Assembly (NCBI GenBank): GCA_965209085.1
Contig: OZ242376.1
Span: 992,001 to 1,056,000 of the forward strand
Reading direction: 5' to 3'
Length of the DNA stretch: 64,000 nucleotides
Origin: Nitrosopumilaceae archaeon
Lineage (GTDB): Archaea; Thermoproteota; Nitrososphaeria; Nitrososphaerales; Nitrosopumilaceae
The notes under the pieces: generated by a model
Told to the model about the DNA's origin: nothing
Database searches by the model: none
What the model saw: the letters and a program-made list of their open reading frames with translations, nothing else
Part shown: piece by piece, positions 3,660 through 62,616 of the stretch
Position numbering within the stretch: position 1 is the stretch's first letter
Layout of the letters: each line of letters starts with the position of its first letter
Program-made: the position numbers and the translations under genes

Positions 3660-6600
3660 ATGGTAACAAAGGTCAATATTCTAAAATTACAGCATGGAAA
3701 CATTGTTTTAATATTTGCACTTGTATTGCTTTCGCCGTTGCCGTTTGTGTCTCCGTTTTCATACAATCATCAACCAGCACAAGCTATGATTTTTGACAAC
3801 CCGCAGATTCCAAAAAATTTCATGGTGATTCCCACTGCATCATCCATAAAATTAATCGATGTGGAGCTTATCCATGATGTATCATCCGGGGGTGAAGTGA
3901 GTGGAAATATCTTTAATTTACGAATAGCAACGCGTGTTGATGCAATTGATATAAAAGAATCCGTCTTTGTTATGGCCGCATCCAATTCAGAGGGTTTTCA
4001 GTTTCTAAATGTAACAGACCCAAATAACGAGAGCATTGCCAGTAATTCAATTTCTACTTTTTATCGTGTTAGCCGCAATAATATTATTGCTAATGATTTC
4101 TCCGCTGGTGCTGTAGACATATCGCCAGTTAAAATTGGTGATTTTACCTATGCCTTGTTGGTTGTTAATTCTGGTACACAAGGTGGTTCGACGGGTTATG
4201 CCATACCTAGTGGCGATATTATTCAGATAAGAAATATAACTGATTTATCCCCCATTATTGGTCCAGCATATGTATCTGAGTTTAGACCAGCTAAAAATGT
4301 ATCATTTGTTACCACAGTCAAAATTGACGGTTCAGTTTATGCGCTGTCAACATCCGTTATTAATCATAGCGTACACATGACAAACATTACAAACGTTTCA
4401 GACCCAAGCGTGTTGTTTAATGTAGATAATAATACTGCAGGGTATGAGACACTTTACGGTGCGTTAGGCATTGCCACTGTACAAATAAACGGCGCGTATT
4501 ATGCACTTGTTACATCTTTTTATGACAGCGGCGTAACAATCATCAATATTACAGATCCTACAAACGCCTCCAGAGTGTCATCCATAGTGGATGAGACAAA
4601 ACTGGACAAGTCGTATGATATAACGACAGTTAAAATAAACAATTCATACTATGCGTTGGTGACATCTAGTAATACCAATAGTTTAACAATCATCAATATT
4701 ACAAATCCAGCATCCCCAAATTTTATCAACACCATAACCCTCAGCACCGAATATCAAATATTAGAGGGTGCAAGGGGCGTTTCCGCCGTCCAGATAAATG
4801 ACACGTATTATGCAATGGTTACAGCAAATATGGGTGTTCAAATTATAAACATCACCACTCCATCATCCCCAACTCCTGTCAGCGGCATAAAAAACGATGT
4901 TGTCGAGTATACGGCACTAAGTCATTCAACTGACATTGTCACAATACAGATAGGAGAATTAAATTATACGTTTGTAACCAGCTTTCTAGATAATGCCATC
5001 CAGGTAATAAAACACGGGTTCATCCTCGATCCTGATACTTATCCCATTGTGGTTACAAGTAATAACACCGACCCATGGTATGCCAAAGCAGGGGATAACA
5101 TTACCGTTCAAGTAAAAGTAAACAACACATTTACCACGCATAATGCGAGTATTCTAAATGCAACGCTGCAGACACACGTTGAAAATTCCAGCTATATGCT
5201 TAACGCCAGCGTGTTGGTTCCAAATTATGCAATCGGGGAATATGCCGCGTTTAACATTACAGTTGCAAACGGCATACACACGTTAACTATTACCGAAGAT
5301 GATCTAAGATATGTGAGAAATGTATTCGTAGATACTGTACGCCCAGGCATAACCTTAATAGATGATGCAAATTATATAGTGTACACTAATACAAATCCTA
5401 CAATTCCAGGAGCTAGTGCAACTGACAATGATCCAGGTTATTCTAATGGATACAGTGTATCTAGTAGCGGCCAACTAAATACAAGTATGGTGGGATCTGT
5501 TGTCACATATACGTACACGGCAAATTCAGATACGGCCGGCAATCGGGGTGAAAGTGTTACAAGAAATGTCACCGTAGCGTCCGGACCGCCAATTGATTTA
5601 GTTAATTTGTCGATATATTCAGAAGTGAACTACGACGGATCCAACGTTGTTTATGTTAATGAAAGTAAGAGGGTCTCTATTTTTGAAAACACGGATTCAG
5701 TCATTATAGATGGTGCAATGATTTGGGGTGTTGGAGGAAATAATACGAATAATGATAATAATCTTAATTTTACTTTAAGGCCAAATCAACAAACTATCAT
5801 TTTTTATTTTTATATGCCTCCCAATACTAATGGAAACATTACATTTTCCACGAGTGTTACAAGCAATTTTGGAAGCACGCTTGTTGTAACACAGGATAAT
5901 ATTACAGATGGGAGGTTCGTTATAGCAGATACTATATCTCCCGTCATAACACTCATCGGCAATTCAACTGTTACGATAAATGCCGGAGAAAATTATACTG
6001 ATATGGGTGCCAGCATTAACGATACGAATCTAATCCCGAACCCGATCATATCATCTAATGCTAGCGATGTGAATACAACCATTCCTGGAACGTACATTAT
6101 AGAATACTCTGCATCAGCAGATCTGGCAGGAAATAAACCCAGCAATGTCACAAGAGAGCTCACAGTCAATGCAAATCCAATAGAGATAACTTTGTTGAAA
6201 ATTGCAAGCTCATCCAACAACAATTTTGCGCGTGCCGGTCAGAATGTAACCGTTGTACTGGAAACTGACGGCTCTGATCTTGTAAATGCTGTTGGAACCG
6301 TATTGGGAAGTGCTTTTACAAACGTTACTGCAGGAGGATCGGGCAACTTTACAGTTACTGTCCTGTCCGGTGATACGAATGGAAACGCCACATTTTCAAT
6401 AACTGTTGAAAACTCTAGTCTAAATATAATTCTCATAACAGAAGAAAACATTACCGACGGTTCGTTTGTCACAATAGATACGATAAAACCCATAATTGTT
6501 TTGACTGGCGGTGCAGGTTCTGTACTCCAGGATGAGACATATCAGGATCCTGGCACCACAATATCAGATAGTAACAATGCATCATATGCAGGTTCCGTAT

Positions 6601-50462: not shown

Positions 50463-53400
50463 CTAGTAGTCTTCGCGGTAGGGTTCAAGCGGCATGATGG
50501 TTGTTTTATTTTTTATCGACCATTCAATGGTCTTTACAAAAGATTCGGCAAGCTCAGGCGTGGTGAGGACTGGAATTCCCATCTCTAGTGCCTTGCGACG
50601 TATGAGATATTCATCAGAAAGCATTCCCACGTATTTTTCAAGGGTCGATGTTCCAGGTATGTTTATTATAAAATCAATTTTATGCTCGTATAACAAATCC
50701 GATATGTTTGGTTTTCTGTCCGGTTCGCTTATTTTATGGACTGTTTTGGCACCTGGCAGGGTTTTTGCAAAAAATTCCACAGTGTGCTCTGTTGCACAAA
50801 TTTCAAATCCCATCTGGTGCAGCGAGGCAATGATCGGCAAAAGACGTTCTTTGTTTTCAGTCCCACCTATGGTGACAAGCGCCATTCCCGAATGCGGTAT
50901 GTGATACCCCACGGAGGTGAGCGCCTTGGATAATGCATCATAAAAGCTGCTCCCAAAACACGCAGCCTCTCCTGTTGATTGCATCTCCACTCCCAGCACA
51001 ATGTCTGCCCCTTCAAGCTGCATGAATGAAAATTGGGGTACCTTTATCCCGTACACCTCTGTTTTTTTCCAGTGATCATGGCGTATCTCCGGCAGTCCCT
51101 CCCCCAATATTGCACCAGAAGCTAAAGAGATGAGGTTTGTTCTGACAAGTTTTGAGACAAACGGCATGGAGCGGGACGCGCGTATGTTGAGCTCTATTAC
51201 GTATACGGTTCCCCCGTTTATTAGAAACTGCAAGTTGAATGGACCGCGTATGTTAAAGGCAATTGCAATCTTTTCGGTATAATCTGTAATGGTTTCTATC
51301 ACCTTGTTGTTTAGTCGCCATGGTGGTATGCACATCATCGCATCCCCAGAATGCACTCCCGCGCTGTCAATGTGCTCAACTACTGCCCCTATTATCACGC
51401 GTTTTCCATCGCAGACTCCGTCAACATCCACTTCAAGCGAGTTTAACATGAATTTTGAGACAACCACGGGATGATCATTTGATATGTCTACAGCTTCGCC
51501 AATGTATTTTTTCAGCTCATTTTGCGACCATATGACGTTCATTGCCGCGCCGCTCAATACGTAAGAGGGCCGTACCAGTACAGGATACCCGACCCTTTGT
51601 GCAAATTCTTTTGCACTAGTTATGTCCGTAAACGTCTGCCAAAGCGGCTGCCTAATGTGCATTCCATCAAGCACAGAGCTGAATGTGGAGCGGTTTTCGG
51701 CCCGGTCCACATCATATGATGATGTGCCAAGTATTGGAATTTTATTCTCGGCCAGCTCGGGGGTGAGATTGTTTGCAGTCTGCCCTCCAACGCACGTTAT
51801 TACACCATGTGGTGATTCAAATTCGGCAATGTCCAGTATGCGCTCCACTGTAAGCTCTTCAAAGTACAGCCTGTCACTTGTGTCATAATCAGTTGAGACA
51901 GTCTCAGGATTACAGTTTACCACGATAACATCCCCCTTGCGGCGTTTTTTCAGCCCCAAAACCATGTTTACCGTTCCCCAGTCAAATTCCACGCTGCTTC
52001 CAATGCGGTAGGGTCCGGCCCCCAAAACGATGATGCTCTTTAATTTATCCTGTATTTTGATGTCATCAGAGTCCCCGCCGTACGTCATGTACAGGTAGTT
52101 TGTCTTTGCTGGCCACTCTGCTGCAAGTGTATCTATCTGTTTTACGCACGGTTTTATTCCAAGACGCAGTCTCATCTCCCGGATATGGTTATGGGTGGTT
52201 TTTTGCGCGCGTGCAATCTGCATGTCAGAAAAACCCAGCCGTTTGGCATCGCGCATGCGCACCCCATCTGTTGCATCGGGCAATTTTTTCCCCATCAAAA
52301 CTATGTTCCGTATTTTTTCAACAAACCACGGATCTATTGCAGAGAGTGAGGATATTTTCCCAGTGTCCATCCCAAGGGCAATTGCGTGTGCCACATTGTA
52401 CAGTATGTTATCGTCAGGGTGTAAAAGGGCATACTCTACTTCCTCCTCTGTGGGCAGATTCCCGTCCCTCTCTGATAAGATCAGCCCGTCACGTCCGGTG
52501 TCAAGCATACGGATGGCTTTTTGCAGCGACTCCTCAAAGCTGCGCCCGATTGCCATAACCTCTCCGACTGATTTCATTGTAGGACCAAGGTTTCGTTTCG
52601 CCATCTCGAATTTGTCAAAATCCCACCTTGGATGTTTGCATACGATGTAGTCAAGTGCCGGCTCAAAGCATGCAGTTGTTTTCTTTGTAATGCTGTTTAC
52701 AAGCTCTGGCAGCGTATACCCGAGTGCAATTTTTGCAGACATGTACGCCAAAGGATATCCTGTGGCCTTGCTTGCAAGAGCTGATGAGCGTGAGAGTCTT
52801 GGGTTTACCTCTATTGCTGCAAAACGCGATGATTTTGTATCCAGGGCATACTGAATGTTGCACTCTCCTACTATCCCCACGTGCCGTATGGCCTGCAGTG
52901 CCGCAAGGCGCATTTCATGGTATTCCTGGTTGTTTATTGTCTGCGACGGAGCTACTACCACGTTGTCTCCTGTATGCACACGCATTGATAGGACATTTTC
53001 CATATTACACACTATGACGCTATTGTCTGCAGCATCACGCATGACCTCGTATTCTATCTGCTTCCAGTCCCCGACATATTCCTCGATGAGCACCTGTCCC
53101 ACCATGCTTGCAGATATTCCCCTTTGAACTATCTCGTGCAATTCAATTTCATTGTGCGCCACTCCCCCGCCTTTTCCTCCAAGCGTGTACGCTACGCGCA
53201 CTATGACAGGATATCCAAGATCCGCTGCAGCATCCTTTGCACCATCAAAGCTTGTAACAGTTTTACCGCGTAAAACCGGTATCTTGCATTGTTCCATGGC
53301 ATCCTTGAAGAGCTGCCTATCCTCAGTATTGCGTATTCCATCAATCTGTGTTCCAAGCACCTTTATGCCGTATTTTGATAAAATACCCGCATCATCCAAA

Positions 53401-53723
53401 CCCACACCGCAGTTTAATGCAGTCTGGCCTCCAAACGATAAGATGAGCGCATCGGGGCGTTCCTTTTCTATGACAGACTCTACATATTGGGAATTTACCG
53501 GTAAAAGGTACACCTTGTCAGCTGAGCGCGTATCAGTCTGTATTGTGGCCACGTTTGGATTTACAAGAATGCTGGAAATTCCCTCCTCGCGCAAGGCTTT
53601 GAGGCATTGGCTTCCAGAGTAGTCGAATTGGCGGCTGTTTTAACAGCTTTCGCCGGCTTCTCCGATCTTTATTGCCCCGCTTCCTAGCACGAGTATTTTC
53701 TTTAGAGTCTCATTTTTTGGCAT
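50463..53723 (-). CDS. carB: Carbamoyl-phosphate synthase large subunit; two exons (53723-53649 and 53627-50463), 1079 aa if spliced
   Basis: Conserved N-terminus MPKNETLKKILVLGSGAIKIGEAGE|FDYSGSQCLKALREEG lies upstream of the ORF-track start; two ATP-grasp halves and an MGS domain. Confidence 0.95.
53628..53648 (-). other. Putative 21-nt bulge-helix-bulge/loop intron in carB
   Basis: AGCTGTTAAAACAGCCGCCAA with in-frame TAA; GGCG/CGCC central helix, AAA bulge, GCTGT/ACAGC hairpin; removal restores GGC GAA TTC GAC. Confidence 0.85.
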
Positions 53724-54867
53724 GTGCACCTCCATTCATCAGGCTCTGCAGCTCTTTGAATACAAACTTGCAGTCAAACGGTCCAGGAGACGCCTCTGGG
53801 TGAAACTGCACTGCTATGCATTTTTGTTTTTTATGACGTATTCCTTCCACGGTTCCATCATCGGCATTTTTAAACCACATCTCAAATTCGGAATTTTCAA
53901 GTGATTCAGGACTGATGCAGTATCCGTGGTTTTGACTCGTCACGTATACCCTGCCATCCTGCAAATTTATGCACGGTTTGTTTTGTCCACGGTGTCCGTA
54001 CTTTAGCTTGTACGTTTTTGCCCCTCCTGCAAGTCCGATTATCTGCGCTCCAAGACATATTCCAAGTGTGGGGATGTTTTTGGATACAAGGTTTTTAACA
54101 GTCTGCACCGTTTGGTGGCATTTTTCAGGATCTCCAGGTCCGTTACTCACAACCACCCCGCTTGGTTTGTAGGAGAGTATTTTCTCAGCTGTTGAATCCC
54201 ATGGAACCGTAATGACCCTATACCCAAGATCACGCACGCATCTTATTATGGCGTTTTTTACACCCACGTCAATTATGACGACCGATTCTTTTCCATTACC
54301 GTATATGTGATCCGTTGTTGTTGAAACTTGCCCCACCAGGTTTTCTGAAGAATACGCATCTGATGCGCGCATCCGCTCAAGTATTTTGTGCTCATCAATC
54401 TCATCATCGGATACGGCAACAGCTGCCATGCCCACTCCCTCCTCGCGCAGTTTTTTTGTCAAAGATCTTGTATCAATTCCAGATATTGCAGGTATTTTTT
54501 GTCCGTGCAGCCATTCATCAAGCGTCATGGACATGTTCCAGTGGCTAGCAACAGTGGAGAGCTCGTGCACCACAAGCGCCCGTGGCTGTATGCGTCCGGA
54601 TTCAGAGTTTACATGTATGCCATCCTCATCTTGAACAGACATGTCAGGTACGCCGTAATTTCCCACAAGCGGATATGTGAGGGTTAGGATTTGCCCGCAA
54701 TACGAGGGATCCGTCAAAGTTTCCACATACCCGACCATCCCTGTATTAAAGACAATCTCGCCAACAGCTGTCCCAGAATATCCAAACCCCGTGCCGTTAA
54801 ATACAGAGCCATCACTTAGAATCAGTTTCCCATTTTTATTGGCGTATTGCGCCTCTTTGATAGCTAT
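53710..54867 (-). CDS. carA: Carbamoyl-phosphate synthase small subunit; start codon unclear (non-canonical)
   Basis: GKLILSDG..GEIVFNTGMVGY..TDPSY.GQ, SNGPGDP, GICLG, SQNHGY, QFHPEASPGP; conserved N-terminus lies upstream of the first ATG (54738). Confidence 0.92.
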   Translation of the reverse strand: MAIKEAQYANKNGKLILSDGSVFNGTGFGYSGTAVGEIVFNTGMVGYVETLTDPSYCGQILTLTYPLVGNYGVPDMSVQDEDGIHVNSESGRIQPRALVVHELSTVASHWNMSMTLDEWLHGQKIPAISGIDTRSLTKKLREEGVGMAAVAVSDDEIDEHKILERMRASDAYSSENLVGQVSTTTDHIYGNGKESVVIIDVGVKNAIIRCVRDLGYRVITVPWDSTAEKILSYKPSGVVVSNGPGDPEKCHQTVQTVKNLVSKNIPTLGICLGAQIIGLAGGAKTYKLKYGHRGQNKPCINLQDGRVYVTSQNHGYCISPESLENSEFEMWFKNADDGTVEGIRHKKQKCIAVQFHPEASPGPFDCKFVFKELQSLMNGGAHAKK

Positions 54868-54938
54868 AGTTAACCCGATCTTTAGTGCTATTTGTAGTGA
54901 TTTTTATATTTTTGGAAATAAAATTTGATCGCATGCGA

Positions 54939-56132
54939 TCAGAGTGCGCCAAACTGGTCTGTCCACTTTGAAAAAGCCCTCAGCATCTCCACTGAGACGC
55001 TGGGTTTTCGGCGGGTCAGAATGATTCTAAAATCCGCAAGCGTCAGGGTCCGTGGCGACTGGGACTCTTCGTTTTCCGTAGGCTCGCAGTATTCAGGCGA
55101 ATTGAACATTTCAGTTACTGCACTTAGCTGTGCTGACTGGCAGACATCGCGTATATCACTGGCGCTATACCCTTCAAACATCTTTGCTAAAATTTGATTT
55201 TTCAATTTTGGATCGTGGTTTAGCTTGCACGTATACGTGTCAAACAGGTTTTTTCTAGACTCCAACGTAGGCAGCGGCACGTGGATGCGTTTTTGGAAGC
55301 GGCGCAGAAACGGCGAATCAAGGCTCCAAGGTTTGTTGGTTGCCCCAATAACGTACAGTTTTGTTTCCTTTGCCTTGTCTTTTATTCCATCCATCTCTAC
55401 TAGAAATTGGTTTCTAGTTCGAACCTCGCCGCCAATCTCGCTGTTGCGTTCCCCTAAAAGCGAGTCAACCTCGTCAATGAACAGTATGACAGGCTTGCCC
55501 TCTTGTCCTGAATATTTTCTTGCCATATCAAACAGCTTTGAGACATTTTTTTCCGCCTCTCCGAGCCATTTTGACATCATTGATGCAGCATCCACGTTTA
55601 TGAAATAACCGTCAATCTCATTTGCCGTAGCAGCTCCCAGTATTGTTTTGCCGCATCCTGGAGGTCCGTACAAGAGTATTCCGTGCGGCCATCCAAGCGG
55701 AAGCAAGTCTGGTCTTTTTGCAGGATATACAATTGATTCACGCAGTGCGTTTTTTGCATCATTCAAACCTATCACCTGATCCCACATGATGTCCGGTTTT
55801 TCTTTCATTACAAGATCGTCAAAATCATTTCGTGATTTTTGATTTTCAAGATTATCTTTTTGCTCTGAGGATGACGCGTTTGGATCCACTGCCGGCTCCA
55901 CACTGCACGAATCCTGCAGTGCCTTTATGCGTCGCTGGTAGGAATTGGTGCGTTCCGTATACAGTGAGTTTAGCTTGTTATTTGGATATAGTGTCATAAG
56001 TTTCACTAGCGAATCTATGGCCTTTTGATAGTTGGATACTGCCATACCTCTAGCGCCATGGGAGTCATGCCTTATTGCATCGGTGGCATATCTACTAGCG
56101 CTGTCTTCTAATTCTTGGGGTGCCATGCTCAT
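54939..56132 (-). CDS. cdvC: Vps4/CdvC AAA+ ATPase (MIT + AAA)
   Basis: N-terminal MIT-like helices, GPPGCGKT, FIDEVD, GATNKPW, RRFQKRI; start taken at MSMAPQELE. Confidence 0.9.
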   Translation of the reverse strand: MSMAPQELEDSASRYATDAIRHDSHGARGMAVSNYQKAIDSLVKLMTLYPNNKLNSLYTERTNSYQRRIKALQDSCSVEPAVDPNASSSEQKDNLENQKSRNDFDDLVMKEKPDIMWDQVIGLNDAKNALRESIVYPAKRPDLLPLGWPHGILLYGPPGCGKTILGAATANEIDGYFINVDAASMMSKWLGEAEKNVSKLFDMARKYSGQEGKPVILFIDEVDSLLGERNSEIGGEVRTRNQFLVEMDGIKDKAKETKLYVIGATNKPWSLDSPFLRRFQKRIHVPLPTLESRKNLFDTYTCKLNHDPKLKNQILAKMFEGYSASDIRDVCQSAQLSAVTEMFNSPEYCEPTENEESQSPRTLTLADFRIILTRRKPSVSVEMLRAFSKWTDQFGAL

Positions 56133-60492: not shown

Positions 60493-62616
60493 TTAAGGCA
60501 CGATAAACTGGATACCGTTTTTGGACAACTCTGTCATTACAAGATATGTTCCAGGTTTTAGAACTCCAAGTGATTTTTCCCAAATTGTCGTAAATTTACC
60601 CGATTGCACCGTTGCATTAAACTCATCACCAAGGGGTTCGCCATCTATTGTAGATATGACAAAGTGTATGATATCAAGATTGGGTATGTTTTTTCCGCGT
60701 ATCTCAAGTGTGTTATTATCTCGTACTGTAACTGTAATTTGTGCGCCAGATTCCATCGCTTCGATGACTTTGAATTCGGCAACGCCCACATTTGTAGCGC
60801 CGCTCTGAGCCTTTAGAGTCCATGTTCCAAACGTCGCATCGGTTGGAATTCTAAATGTGTCATCGGATATTTTTCCATTTATAGAGCTGTCCCCGCTAAA
60901 CACCTGCTTGGTTTTTATCACTGTTCCGTCAGGATCCAAAAGAGACAGATCCAAGAGAACCGGCGTGTTTGTTTCAATGTTACCTAGTACGAGTATGTCA
61001 GAACCGGGAATATATTCGGATTTTGTTGTTTTTACCGTAACAAGTCCTGTCCCGTATCCAATGTTGACTCCAAATATAGCCTCTTTTTCGATGTTTCCTT
61101 TTGTCACTATCATCGTGTATACTCCCGTGGTATAATCACCCAAATCTAGCAGATGGTTTAATCTGCCATTGGATCCAATTGTTCTCGATTCTTCAGGTTT
61201 GTTCCTATTGTCACTATCTAACACTATGATGGTGACTTTACCCGGATTGCCTTCTATTATCACGTTTACGGATTCAGATGATCTATAGTTTATTTTGTCA
61301 AGATGCAGCTCTATGCCTTTTGTTGGAAGCTCCCCCAACCCTCCAAATACGATTGCCCTCTCAGAGTTTTGAGAAATGTGCAGTGTGTACGTACCTTCCA
61401 AATCAGAGTGCTTTGTAGGAAATTCTATGCGCACGTTTCCTTCCAAATCAGGCTCTATTATCTCAGAGTATACCTCACTGCCCCTTGGATCAGTTATCGT
61501 CACATCTATTGCATGTCCGGGAAGAACTTTTCCAGTGAACGTCATGACATCGCCTGGTTCAAATTGTAGCAGTGTAGAAGAAATGTCAATTATCCGCGTA
61601 TCATCAACTGTAAACAATCGCGATTCTGTCGTACGGCCGTTTGTAGCCTGTATCGTATAAGAGCCGGCAGTCATGACAGATGGTACAAGAACATTGTGCT
61701 TCCAGTTTCCAGAGACGCTTGTTTCAATTATCTTTGATTCCAACGTAACTAGGTCAGGTCCAAATACGGTTATGACAATGTACGAGTTTTGCAGTGCGGT
61801 TCCATGAAACTCTGCAATTTCAGAAGTCTTAACATCCACAGGTCCTAAGATCATGATGCTCTCTATGGCATTTGGTGTAATCTTTGTCTTTGCGGTACCA
61901 AGCCGTATGCTAAGATCCTTGCGGTTGTCCTGCGAATCCAACAGGACAAAGTTGGTTCTATCAGCACCAATGTTTTCAGGTATGCGTGCAGTCTCCAATA
62001 TTTTGCCATTCTCTGATGCAGTATACGTACCCACAAGCTGCGATTCAATGTAAAAATCAACACTCTCGCCTGGAGATATTCCATCAGCTACTATTCTAAT
62101 GCTGGCCCCCACATTTGGCCTCTCTGGCACTATGCGAAATGACGTGGAATCTGCAATTGCGCCCCTTTGCGGTATGGGGTTATCAGGAGTGGGGGGTGTT
62201 GGCTCGGCAGGTTTATCGGCAATTATGATGCCAGAGCCTACGACATTGCCGTTTGTGTCAAATGCGTTCCAGTTTATCTGAAAATCATCAGAATCTACAG
62301 TCATGCCAAACTGTGCAGACGCTCCAGATTCCAGCGGAACCGGTGCTACAAACGTAAGAATTCCAGCAGGGTTTAATGACGCAGTCCAGTCGTTGCCAGT
62401 TTTGTATGATCTAAAATCGCCAGGATCCAACCAAACAGAGAACGTCTGTATAGTTGTACCAGGGGAATTTTTTACAGTCAGTATGGCACTTTTTCCCACC
62501 AAATCGCCTGTAACCTGCACCTGTGCAAACGATTCTACAAAGACGGACGGGGCTGCAAATAAAATGATTGTAATTACCAGTGCCAATCCGAACGTCTGTT
62601 TTGACATATAGATCAC
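60493..62616 (-). CDS. Secreted multi-Ig-like-domain surface protein
   Basis: Signal peptide, Pro-rich linker PAEPTPPTPDNP, repeated DPxG...GTYT beta-sandwich modules. Confidence 0.75.
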   Translation of the reverse strand: MIYMSKQTFGLALVITIILFAAPSVFVESFAQVQVTGDLVGKSAILTVKNSPGTTIQTFSVWLDPGDFRSYKTGNDWTASLNPAGILTFVAPVPLESGASAQFGMTVDSDDFQINWNAFDTNGNVVGSGIIIADKPAEPTPPTPDNPIPQRGAIADSTSFRIVPERPNVGASIRIVADGISPGESVDFYIESQLVGTYTASENGKILETARIPENIGADRTNFVLLDSQDNRKDLSIRLGTAKTKITPNAIESIMILGPVDVKTSEIAEFHGTALQNSYIVITVFGPDLVTLESKIIETSVSGNWKHNVLVPSVMTAGSYTIQATNGRTTESRLFTVDDTRIIDISSTLLQFEPGDVMTFTGKVLPGHAIDVTITDPRGSEVYSEIIEPDLEGNVRIEFPTKHSDLEGTYTLHISQNSERAIVFGGLGELPTKGIELHLDKINYRSSESVNVIIEGNPGKVTIIVLDSDNRNKPEESRTIGSNGRLNHLLDLGDYTTGVYTMIVTKGNIEKEAIFGVNIGYGTGLVTVKTTKSEYIPGSDILVLGNIETNTPVLLDLSLLDPDGTVIKTKQVFSGDSSINGKISDDTFRIPTDATFGTWTLKAQSGATNVGVAEFKVIEAMESGAQITVTVRDNNTLEIRGKNIPNLDIIHFVISTIDGEPLGDEFNATVQSGKFTTIWEKSLGVLKPGTYLVMTELSKNGIQFIVP

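Follow-up and report, generated by a model that had tools for sequence, protein, structure and literature searches.

A short relaxed bulge-helix-bulge insert in carB of Nitrososphaerales, very probably a spliced mRNA intron

Introduction

The closest described counterpart of the insert reported here is the intron in the cbf5 pre-mRNA of Crenarchaeota (Desulfurococcales and Sulfolobales), which measures 16-44 bp (Yokobori 2009, PMC2738675). In the accessible text of that paper, most cbf5 introns are described as having an unconventional bulge-helix-bulge (BHB) motif, their origin is called unclear, they are considered too short to encode a nuclease, and the Nitrososphaerales are listed without a cbf5 intron. 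The same text places the archaeal splicing cut after the second bulge base, i.e. between the second and third residue (PMC2738675). As of 2020, cbf5 was the only other archaeal mRNA with a BHB intron according to the accessible part of PMC7714728, and a 2025 paper, in its accessible sections, cites the cbf5 papers alone for mRNA introns (PMC12397907). An mRNA intron goes unmentioned in the accessible sections of PMC3082918 and of bioRxiv 10.64898/2026.10.13.758758. Archaeal tRNA introns of a non-canonical kind, having HBh' splice sites, were reported by Marck and Grosjean 2003, as related in the accessible text of PMC4090602. Collaborative homing, in which a free-standing endonuclease is paired with a neighbouring intron, is described for T3/T7-like phages and for cyanophage psbA (PMC10448857, accessible text).

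The stretch of 64,000 nucleotides analysed here, referred to as the window, belongs to a Nitrosopumilaceae archaeon genome (G000) that consists of one contig and is 98% complete. A preliminary description of the window had proposed that its carB gene, encoding carbamoyl-phosphate synthase, is interrupted by an mRNA intron of the tRNA-splicing type. No published carB intron was found in our literature searches, and subscription papers and supplements could hold one; the carB intron is apparently unpublished.

Results

On the minus strand of the window, sequence reading placed a 21-nt insert (53648-53628) between the G-E and F-D-Y-S-G codons of carB. The ATG at 53723, which overlaps the end of carA, opens exon 1 (53649..53723), whose 25 codons (CarB residues 1-25) lead into the insert, and an in-frame TAA at 53642-53640 is codon 28 of the unspliced gene. 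When the insert is removed, translation continues into exon 2 (50463..53627; 1054 codons plus stop, with Pfam CPSase_L_D1/D2/D3 and MGS) as a single 1079-aa CarB frame, which reproduces on the sequence the reading given in the preliminary description. Among 13 registers tried, the GEFDYSG motif was regained in three only, all of them giving one spliced product (a 2-nt AA ambiguity, or direct repeat), with IGEAGEFDYSGSQCLK as the predicted junction peptide. Plain ORF calling on the unspliced gene gave a 1043-aa protein from TTG at 53594 that misses the first 36 residues. Exon 1 matched residues 1-24 of a carbamoyl-phosphate synthase of known structure (PDB 1bxr_A, E = 0.0046). Over 12 of its codons, the differences counted among 131 distinct sequences were synonymous in 796 codons and non-synonymous in 226; three of the 131 stretches contain a stop, probably from overlap with a second insert. 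Judged by these comparisons, selection acts on exon 1 at the protein level, and the exon matches the CarB N-terminus.

The gene immediately upstream is carA (53710..54867, minus strand; Pfam CPSase_sm_chain and GATase), whose end overlaps the beginning of carB. The first ATG of carA is at 54738, and homology continues for about 43 codons 5' of it, as far as 54867, where an ATA is the probable start codon, with no ATG, GTG or TTG between (window 54867-54738, minus strand). An ATA or ATT codon following a Shine-Dalgarno-like stretch at the carA 5' end was seen in the window and in loci L002, L003, L008, L011 and L023, which suggests a conserved non-AUG start for carA. Elsewhere in the window, a 707-aa probable surface protein is encoded at 60493-62616 (minus strand), and an open frame of more than 5000 codons begins near window position 3700 (G000:C1 near 995.7 kb). 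A promoter and terminator scan stayed at chance level; its models are bacterial-type and thus uninformative for this host. A search against Rfam gave no meaningful match in window positions 53400-55000, with one chance match (E = 1) elsewhere. Together with the length of the insert, 21 nt vs a catalytic core of hundreds of bases, this eliminates a group I or group II self-splicing intron.

RNAfold predicted a 4-bp central helix, a 3-nt bulge and a 5-bp intron hairpin for 6/6 sizes of the folded segment, as outlined in the preliminary description, and an exon-exon helix once the flank reached at least 20 nt. On the minus strand, the exonic 5' strand of the central helix (GGCG, 53651..53654) pairs with intron positions 53633-53630, and the intron hairpin (53634..53647) has a 4-nt loop. 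By geometry, the 5' bulge (53648..53650) would be cut between 53649 and 53648 and the 3' bulge or loop (53627..53629) between 53628 and 53627. The outer exon-exon helix (53614..53665), formed by 53665-53657 with 53622-53614, encloses the splice motif and starts beyond an internal loop. Across 159 inserts compared (see below), the exon side next to the 3' bulge had no pair in 62 and one pair in 97, leaving no canonical second helix. The strict hBHBh' motif was therefore rejected and, since the exon-side helix is absent, the predicted motif is classed as the relaxed HBh' type; the relaxed exon side noted earlier thus holds for the whole set.

A loose whole-genome scan of G000 for frame-restoring BHB-like inserts, of the kind suggested in the preliminary description, returned 101 candidates, with the carB insert ranking first in motif stability (-10.3 kcal/mol; next best -6.2). 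In this comparison of folding energies no other candidate came close; the others are at most candidate introns. Near-identical dispersed repeats recurred among its hits (G000:C1, e.g. 795233, 958824, 727871, 1185663 and 474055; 705581, 707831 and 1157927) and are probably insertion-sequence copies.

The spread of the insert in the Nitrososphaerales was surveyed in an even draw of 401 genomes (388 with completeness of 90% or more and contamination of 5% or less; seven flagged as unpublished included). The same-site insert pattern was found in 267/401 genomes and a clean junction in 108/401, which by subtraction leaves 26/401 matching neither pattern, provided that the two never coincide in one genome. 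A control search with the reversed pattern had no match in any of the 401 genomes. The distribution is patchy even within one genus (g14), with the insert in 21 and no insert in 57 of 78 genomes. Among carB loci chosen by protein search, the insert lay at the exact codon boundary in 26/30 (the window's own included) and in 13/27 further loci, i.e. in 39/57, and the remaining 18/57 had a clean junction. A scan of GTDB genomes for the insert pattern gave at least 120 matches; among the matches listed, titles were nearly all Nitrososphaerales, with Nitrosopumilus salarius BD31, Nitrosotenuis chungbukensis MY2, Nitrosotalea bavarica, Nitrosocosmicus, Nitrososphaera and Nitrosopelagicus among them. 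One locus titled Heimdallarchaeota (L092) has the intron and exons of the type found in ammonia oxidisers (AOA); misbinning or transfer is possible there. A quick tree built from 90 CarB rows shows intron-less AOA carB alleles nested among carriers.

For structural comparison, 177 loci were assembled, some genomes being represented twice and one locus (L058) coming from an unpublished genome; they hold 100 distinct inserts. An insert of 17-38 nt was present in 159/177 loci, and every one of the 159 breaks the frame, 77 by a frameshift (both phases occur) and 82 by an in-frame stop. All four pairs of the central helix could form in 137 of the 159 inserts and three of four in the other 22, and an intron stem of 3-10 bp was present in all 159. 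Covariation was measured on 50 distinct 21-nt examples, which align without gaps. Here 95.6% of cells were paired, and 47 compensatory cells were counted vs 12.6 +/- 2.7 in shuffles (0/500 shuffles reached this number); controls with slid partners gave 24-56% paired. The central helix was paired in 96.5% of cells, and two-sided compensatory change occurred in 4/5 pairs of the intron hairpin. The alignment of carB 5' ends proposed earlier thus yielded both same-position inserts and a covarying stem. The outer exon-exon helix was paired in 99.3% of cells, without two-sided change. Among the 57 protein-selected loci, in which kin are not independent, the Gly codon that pairs in the central helix is GGC in 37/39 intron-bearing vs 1/18 intron-less loci, and codons of the outer helix follow the same division (GGA in 38/39 vs 3/18; TCY in 38/39 vs 8/18). 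Synonymous sites of the pairing exon codons thus appear constrained where the intron is present.

These data bear on the simplest alternative, that the in-frame stop in the assembled sequence marks a pseudogene or an assembly artefact. Both are refuted by the occurrence of the insert in 267/401 genomes, by the frame break in 159/159 inserts and by the covariation. The single carB of G000 (a genome-wide search for a second copy found none, just two weak ATP-grasp matches), exon 2 remaining open for 1054 codons and the intact carA speak against them too. The chance that either is correct is negligible.

RNA evidence concerns the locus of a cultured relative, Nitrosotenuis chungbukensis MY2. Runs were searched with its locus L100, and 4/23 listed runs were compared in detail, of which X1, X2 and X3 are RNA-Seq runs of one study, available as Logan assembled contigs. 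In each of the three, a single contig of about 4.7 kb (depth 94, 98 and 173) spans the L100 stretch without a substitution. Missing from it are 21 bases at position 315, exactly the predicted intron L100:315-335, which is homologous to the window's insert. No unspliced branch occurred among the assembled contigs of X1-X3, bearing in mind that contigs, unlike reads, drop rare variants. The fourth run (X17, run type not on record) contained the unspliced form over 103-353, reaching just 18 bases past the intron on one side. These contigs, from RNA runs of one study with no DNA run of the same culture beside them, indicate that the carB intron is spliced in a relative, and the spliced junction that the preliminary description had called for is present in 3/3 RNA runs compared with this locus. 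The contigs also differ from the L100 reference (NZ_CP130341.1) by four single-base indels at 415, 438, 474 and 508, upstream of the intron. We read these as errors in the public assembly, since they break the carA frame of the reference and since, for each of them, a like gap occurs in four congeners at the position or beside it.

An alternative without splicing would have ribosomes hop or read through the insert or restart at TTG 53594, the deletion in RNA being a reverse-transcriptase skip across the hairpin or the mark of an intron-less subculture. The 1043-aa ORF from 53594 does exist, a 2-nt direct repeat flanks the junction, and the RNA contigs have no DNA counterpart from the same culture, all of which would fit. 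However, with 77/159 inserts shifting the frame in both phases, no single hop or readthrough fits; exon 1 shows protein-level selection and matches the CarB N-terminus; the deletion is carried by the sole contig in three runs at depth 94-173 and falls exactly on EndA geometry; and X17, short as its overhang is and of unrecorded type, holds the unspliced form. We consider this alternative highly improbable.

The preliminary description had also raised the idea that splicing acts as a control point. As a regulatory switch, CarB synthesis would be gated either by how the 5' mRNA folds or by the activity of EndA/RtcB, which would tie pyrimidine and arginine supply to tRNA maturation. The position of the intron at codon 25-26 of an essential gene, where every copy blocks translation until spliced, its retention in 267/401 genomes, and the apparently non-AUG start of carA, another possible expression limit in the operon, speak for such a switch. 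Against it, the spliced form alone was assembled in 3/3 RNA runs, 108/401 genomes do without the intron and are interleaved with carriers inside genera (57/78 in one genus), and loop sequence and length are free to vary (17-38 nt). The constant frame break is also expected from selection against a seven-residue insertion in an invariant motif. The control-point idea thus found no support and a regulatory switch seems unlikely; carB splicing is probably constitutive.

The enzymes expected for tRNA-type splicing are encoded in G000, which has two tRNA_int_endo (EndA) genes (G000:C1 near 479.4 kb and 369.0 kb) and one rtcB. The alpha EndA ORF has Tyr, His and Lys at the positions that we take to be the catalytic motifs, and the second EndA ORF is without them. 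This pair would fit the alpha2beta2 type given for EndA of Thaumarchaeota (PMC4090602, accessible text).

A candidate natural substrate of the same shape lies outside the window, in the tRNA-Trp gene at G000:C1:320282-320427 (minus strand). Excision of a 21-nt insert at G000:C1:320378-320398 (minus strand) turns a mis-called tRNA into tRNA-Trp(CCA), so that the gene has two introns, the 21-nt one at 28/29 and a 50-nt anticodon intron, which seems to hold what we take to be box C/D-like motifs; ARAGORN mis-calls this two-intron gene as tRNA-Ser. The 21-nt intron has a GGCG/CGCA helix and a bulge layout as in many carB introns, and a strict pattern found a same-site tRNA-Trp intron in 20/61 genomes (loci L265-L284). 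Since ARAGORN calls no other tRNA-Trp in G000, the host endonuclease very probably has to process a relaxed motif of the carB type in pre-tRNA-Trp, as far as the gene sequences tell.

The likeness raises the possibility that the carB intron originated as a copy of the pre-tRNA-Trp 28/29 intron, which likewise lies in a GGCGA exon context; an endonuclease may or may not have helped later. The two share a helix (GGCG/CGCH), an AGT start (19/20 tRNA and 28/39 carB introns) and similar last eight bases; the tRNA intron occurs in the 20/61 genomes given above; and transposition of introns between tRNA genes is on record (Fujishima 2010, as cited in the accessible text of PMC4090602). Yet most of the common bases are dictated by exon pairing and the purine bulge, loop and stem are unlike within one genome, carB introns outside the AOA have a different stem, and genomes G004 and G015 keep the tRNA intron without a carB intron. 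A copy from tRNA-Trp is a minority possibility, and it and an origin as partner of an endonuclease are not mutually exclusive.

The GTDB scan matches listed also include records titled Woesearchaeota, Methanosarcinales and unclassified archaeon. Inserts in those records occupy the same carB site, measure 17-18 nt and have a different stem, and in 3/4 of these non-order genomes a LAGLIDADG_3 ORF lies directly upstream of carB. Two loci titled Methanosarcinales (L112 and L142) have a CarB that groups with relatives of genome G064, and here too misbinning or transfer is possible. The non-AOA loci were extended by 15 from a metagenome scan for inserts of non-AOA type and by 30 from 101 genomes around G064 (44 genomes with a match). 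Duplicates were merged (L194/200/204/205; L182/206), and L199, whose contig shows no ORF before carB, and G065, an AOA-type insert in a frameshifted assembly, were left out, as were the unparsed L215, L224 and L234. An endonuclease-like ORF lay directly upstream in 10/17 distinct intron-bearing loci vs 0/24 intron-less ones. Six of the ten ORFs are LAGLIDADG_3 and four have homing-endonuclease-associated HNH repeats. At the other seven intron-bearing loci the upstream gene is carA in five and NUDIX in two; at the 24 intron-less loci it is carA in 17 and another gene in seven. The unbiased G064 set by itself gives 3/3 vs 0/24 (Fisher p = 0.0003, or 0.003 when the centre is excluded; kin are not independent).

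The LAGLIDADG ORFs upstream of carB, among them those of L182, L184, L191, L202 and L213, have two motifs with acidic residues at the catalytic positions. The four HNH-repeat ORFs (L192:477-1805, L197:96-1448, L203:1658-2983 and L232:1-1422; 3-4 repeats of PF18780, PHROG 22655) match just the HNH-associated repeat and no nuclease domain; a second ORF of L232 gave a weak match to the restriction-endonuclease fold. PHROGs supplied no nuclease name for 11 upstream ORFs. In one carB with an intron and an upstream LAGLIDADG ORF (L184, G062:C31), three internal stops (TAG, TGA and TAA) reflect decay, further inserts or assembly error.

Nine non-AOA loci (L181, L182, L183, L192, L194, L197, L199, L203 and L213) have another HBh' insert, 23-32 nt long, at a G-S-G-A/L-K boundary some 20 nt upstream of the first, which leaves a tiny middle exon; removing both inserts restores the conserved motif. 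The quick CarB tree, from which L192, L194 and L197 (short), L204 and L205 (duplicates) and three unparsed loci were omitted, places intron-bearing non-AOA alleles among intron-less sisters: L191 groups with L231 (support 99) and L182 falls inside a clade of four intron-less alleles (support 99).

No endonuclease ORF precedes carB in the AOA loci checked, where carA directly precedes carB, and no LAGLIDADG_3 gene was found in G000. The carA C-terminal motif was within 420 nt in 147/159 insert loci. The other 12 comprise three non-AOA endonuclease loci, two loci that were too short, L077 and L101, and five that were fetched at greater length, of which four show carA and one ends at a contig edge.

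Discussion

Taken together, conservation and covariation of the insert, the two-subunit EndA and RtcB genes, the lack of a second carB in G000 and the loss of the exact 21 nt from RNA contigs compared with the N. chungbukensis MY2 locus bear out the central proposal of the preliminary description, and we hold it very likely that the carB insert is an mRNA intron cut by EndA and joined by RtcB. In the proposed mechanism, the carB pre-mRNA would fold into a relaxed BHB (HBh') motif within the exon-exon helix, the host (alpha-beta)2 EndA would cleave each 3-nt bulge 3' of its second base, and the exons would be joined by RtcB to give the mRNA for the 1079-aa CarB, in the window's own organism presumably as in its relative.

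Compared with cbf5, the carB intron is likewise short (17-38 nt), has an unconventional BHB with the cut predicted between the second and third bulge residue, lies near the 5' end of a conserved gene, has been gained and lost patchily and occurs in hosts with a hetero-oligomeric EndA. It has every tested feature of a cbf5-type archaeal mRNA intron, the spliced RNA being that for the relative's locus, while lacking the strict hBHBh' form. It differs in that carB encodes a core metabolic enzyme and cbf5 an RNA-modifying one, and in that other archaeal groups, too, have inserts at the carB site, with a second intron at nine loci and an endonuclease-like neighbour at many. The HBh' tRNA introns share the motif, and the G000 pre-tRNA-Trp 28/29 intron equals the carB intron in helix and length; unlike them, the carB intron sits in a coding frame, where an exon-exon helix of synonymous sites replaces the tRNA body. 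The known archaeal mRNA with an EndA site in its leader is alike in that EndA acts on an mRNA, but there the site is in the untranslated leader and here in the frame of carB.

Collaborative homing offers a model for the origin. The phage introns involved are self-splicing group I introns. The likeness lies in an endonuclease gene placed beside, not inside, the intron of a conserved essential gene. In contrast to the phage systems, the carB intron is 17-38 nt, very probably host-spliced and located in cellular chromosomes, its putative nucleases are known from genes alone, and the window's lineage has no endonuclease gene at the carB locus. The 10/17 vs 0/24 split outside the order nevertheless suggests collaborative homing. 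The intron would then be a relic of nearly neutral effect, lying within what was the target site of a free-standing homing endonuclease; the two would have spread together, as they may still do beside carB in other archaea, and in the ammonia oxidisers the endonuclease gene would be gone, the intron being inherited and now and then precisely lost. By this analogy, an origin of the carB intron as immunity partner of a free-standing homing endonuclease is moderately probable. A wider proposition, to which we give slightly better than even odds, is that tiny host-spliced BHB introns are a class of mobile elements in archaeal protein-coding genes, immunity patches for free-standing homing endonucleases that travel with the nuclease and outlast it. 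In that view at least two unrelated endonuclease-associated families converge on the first 25 carB codons, some alleles having gathered two introns, and the carB intron of most AOA would be a fixed relic possibly seeded from tRNA-Trp.

Within the searchable literature, carB would be the second archaeal gene with a coding-sequence intron beside cbf5 (PMC7714728, accessible text). Since the gene is an essential metabolic one and roughly two thirds of the genomes sampled carry the intron, mRNA splicing would be a routine step in the order to which the ammonia oxidisers belong, and in hundreds of genomes plain ORF calling gives a CarB without its first 36 residues. The endonuclease neighbours in other archaea make the spread of very short archaeal introns directly testable. 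If the carB intron is indeed derived from a mobile element, such an element would have tied the mRNA of a core metabolic enzyme to tRNA splicing throughout a microbial group that ranks among the most abundant.
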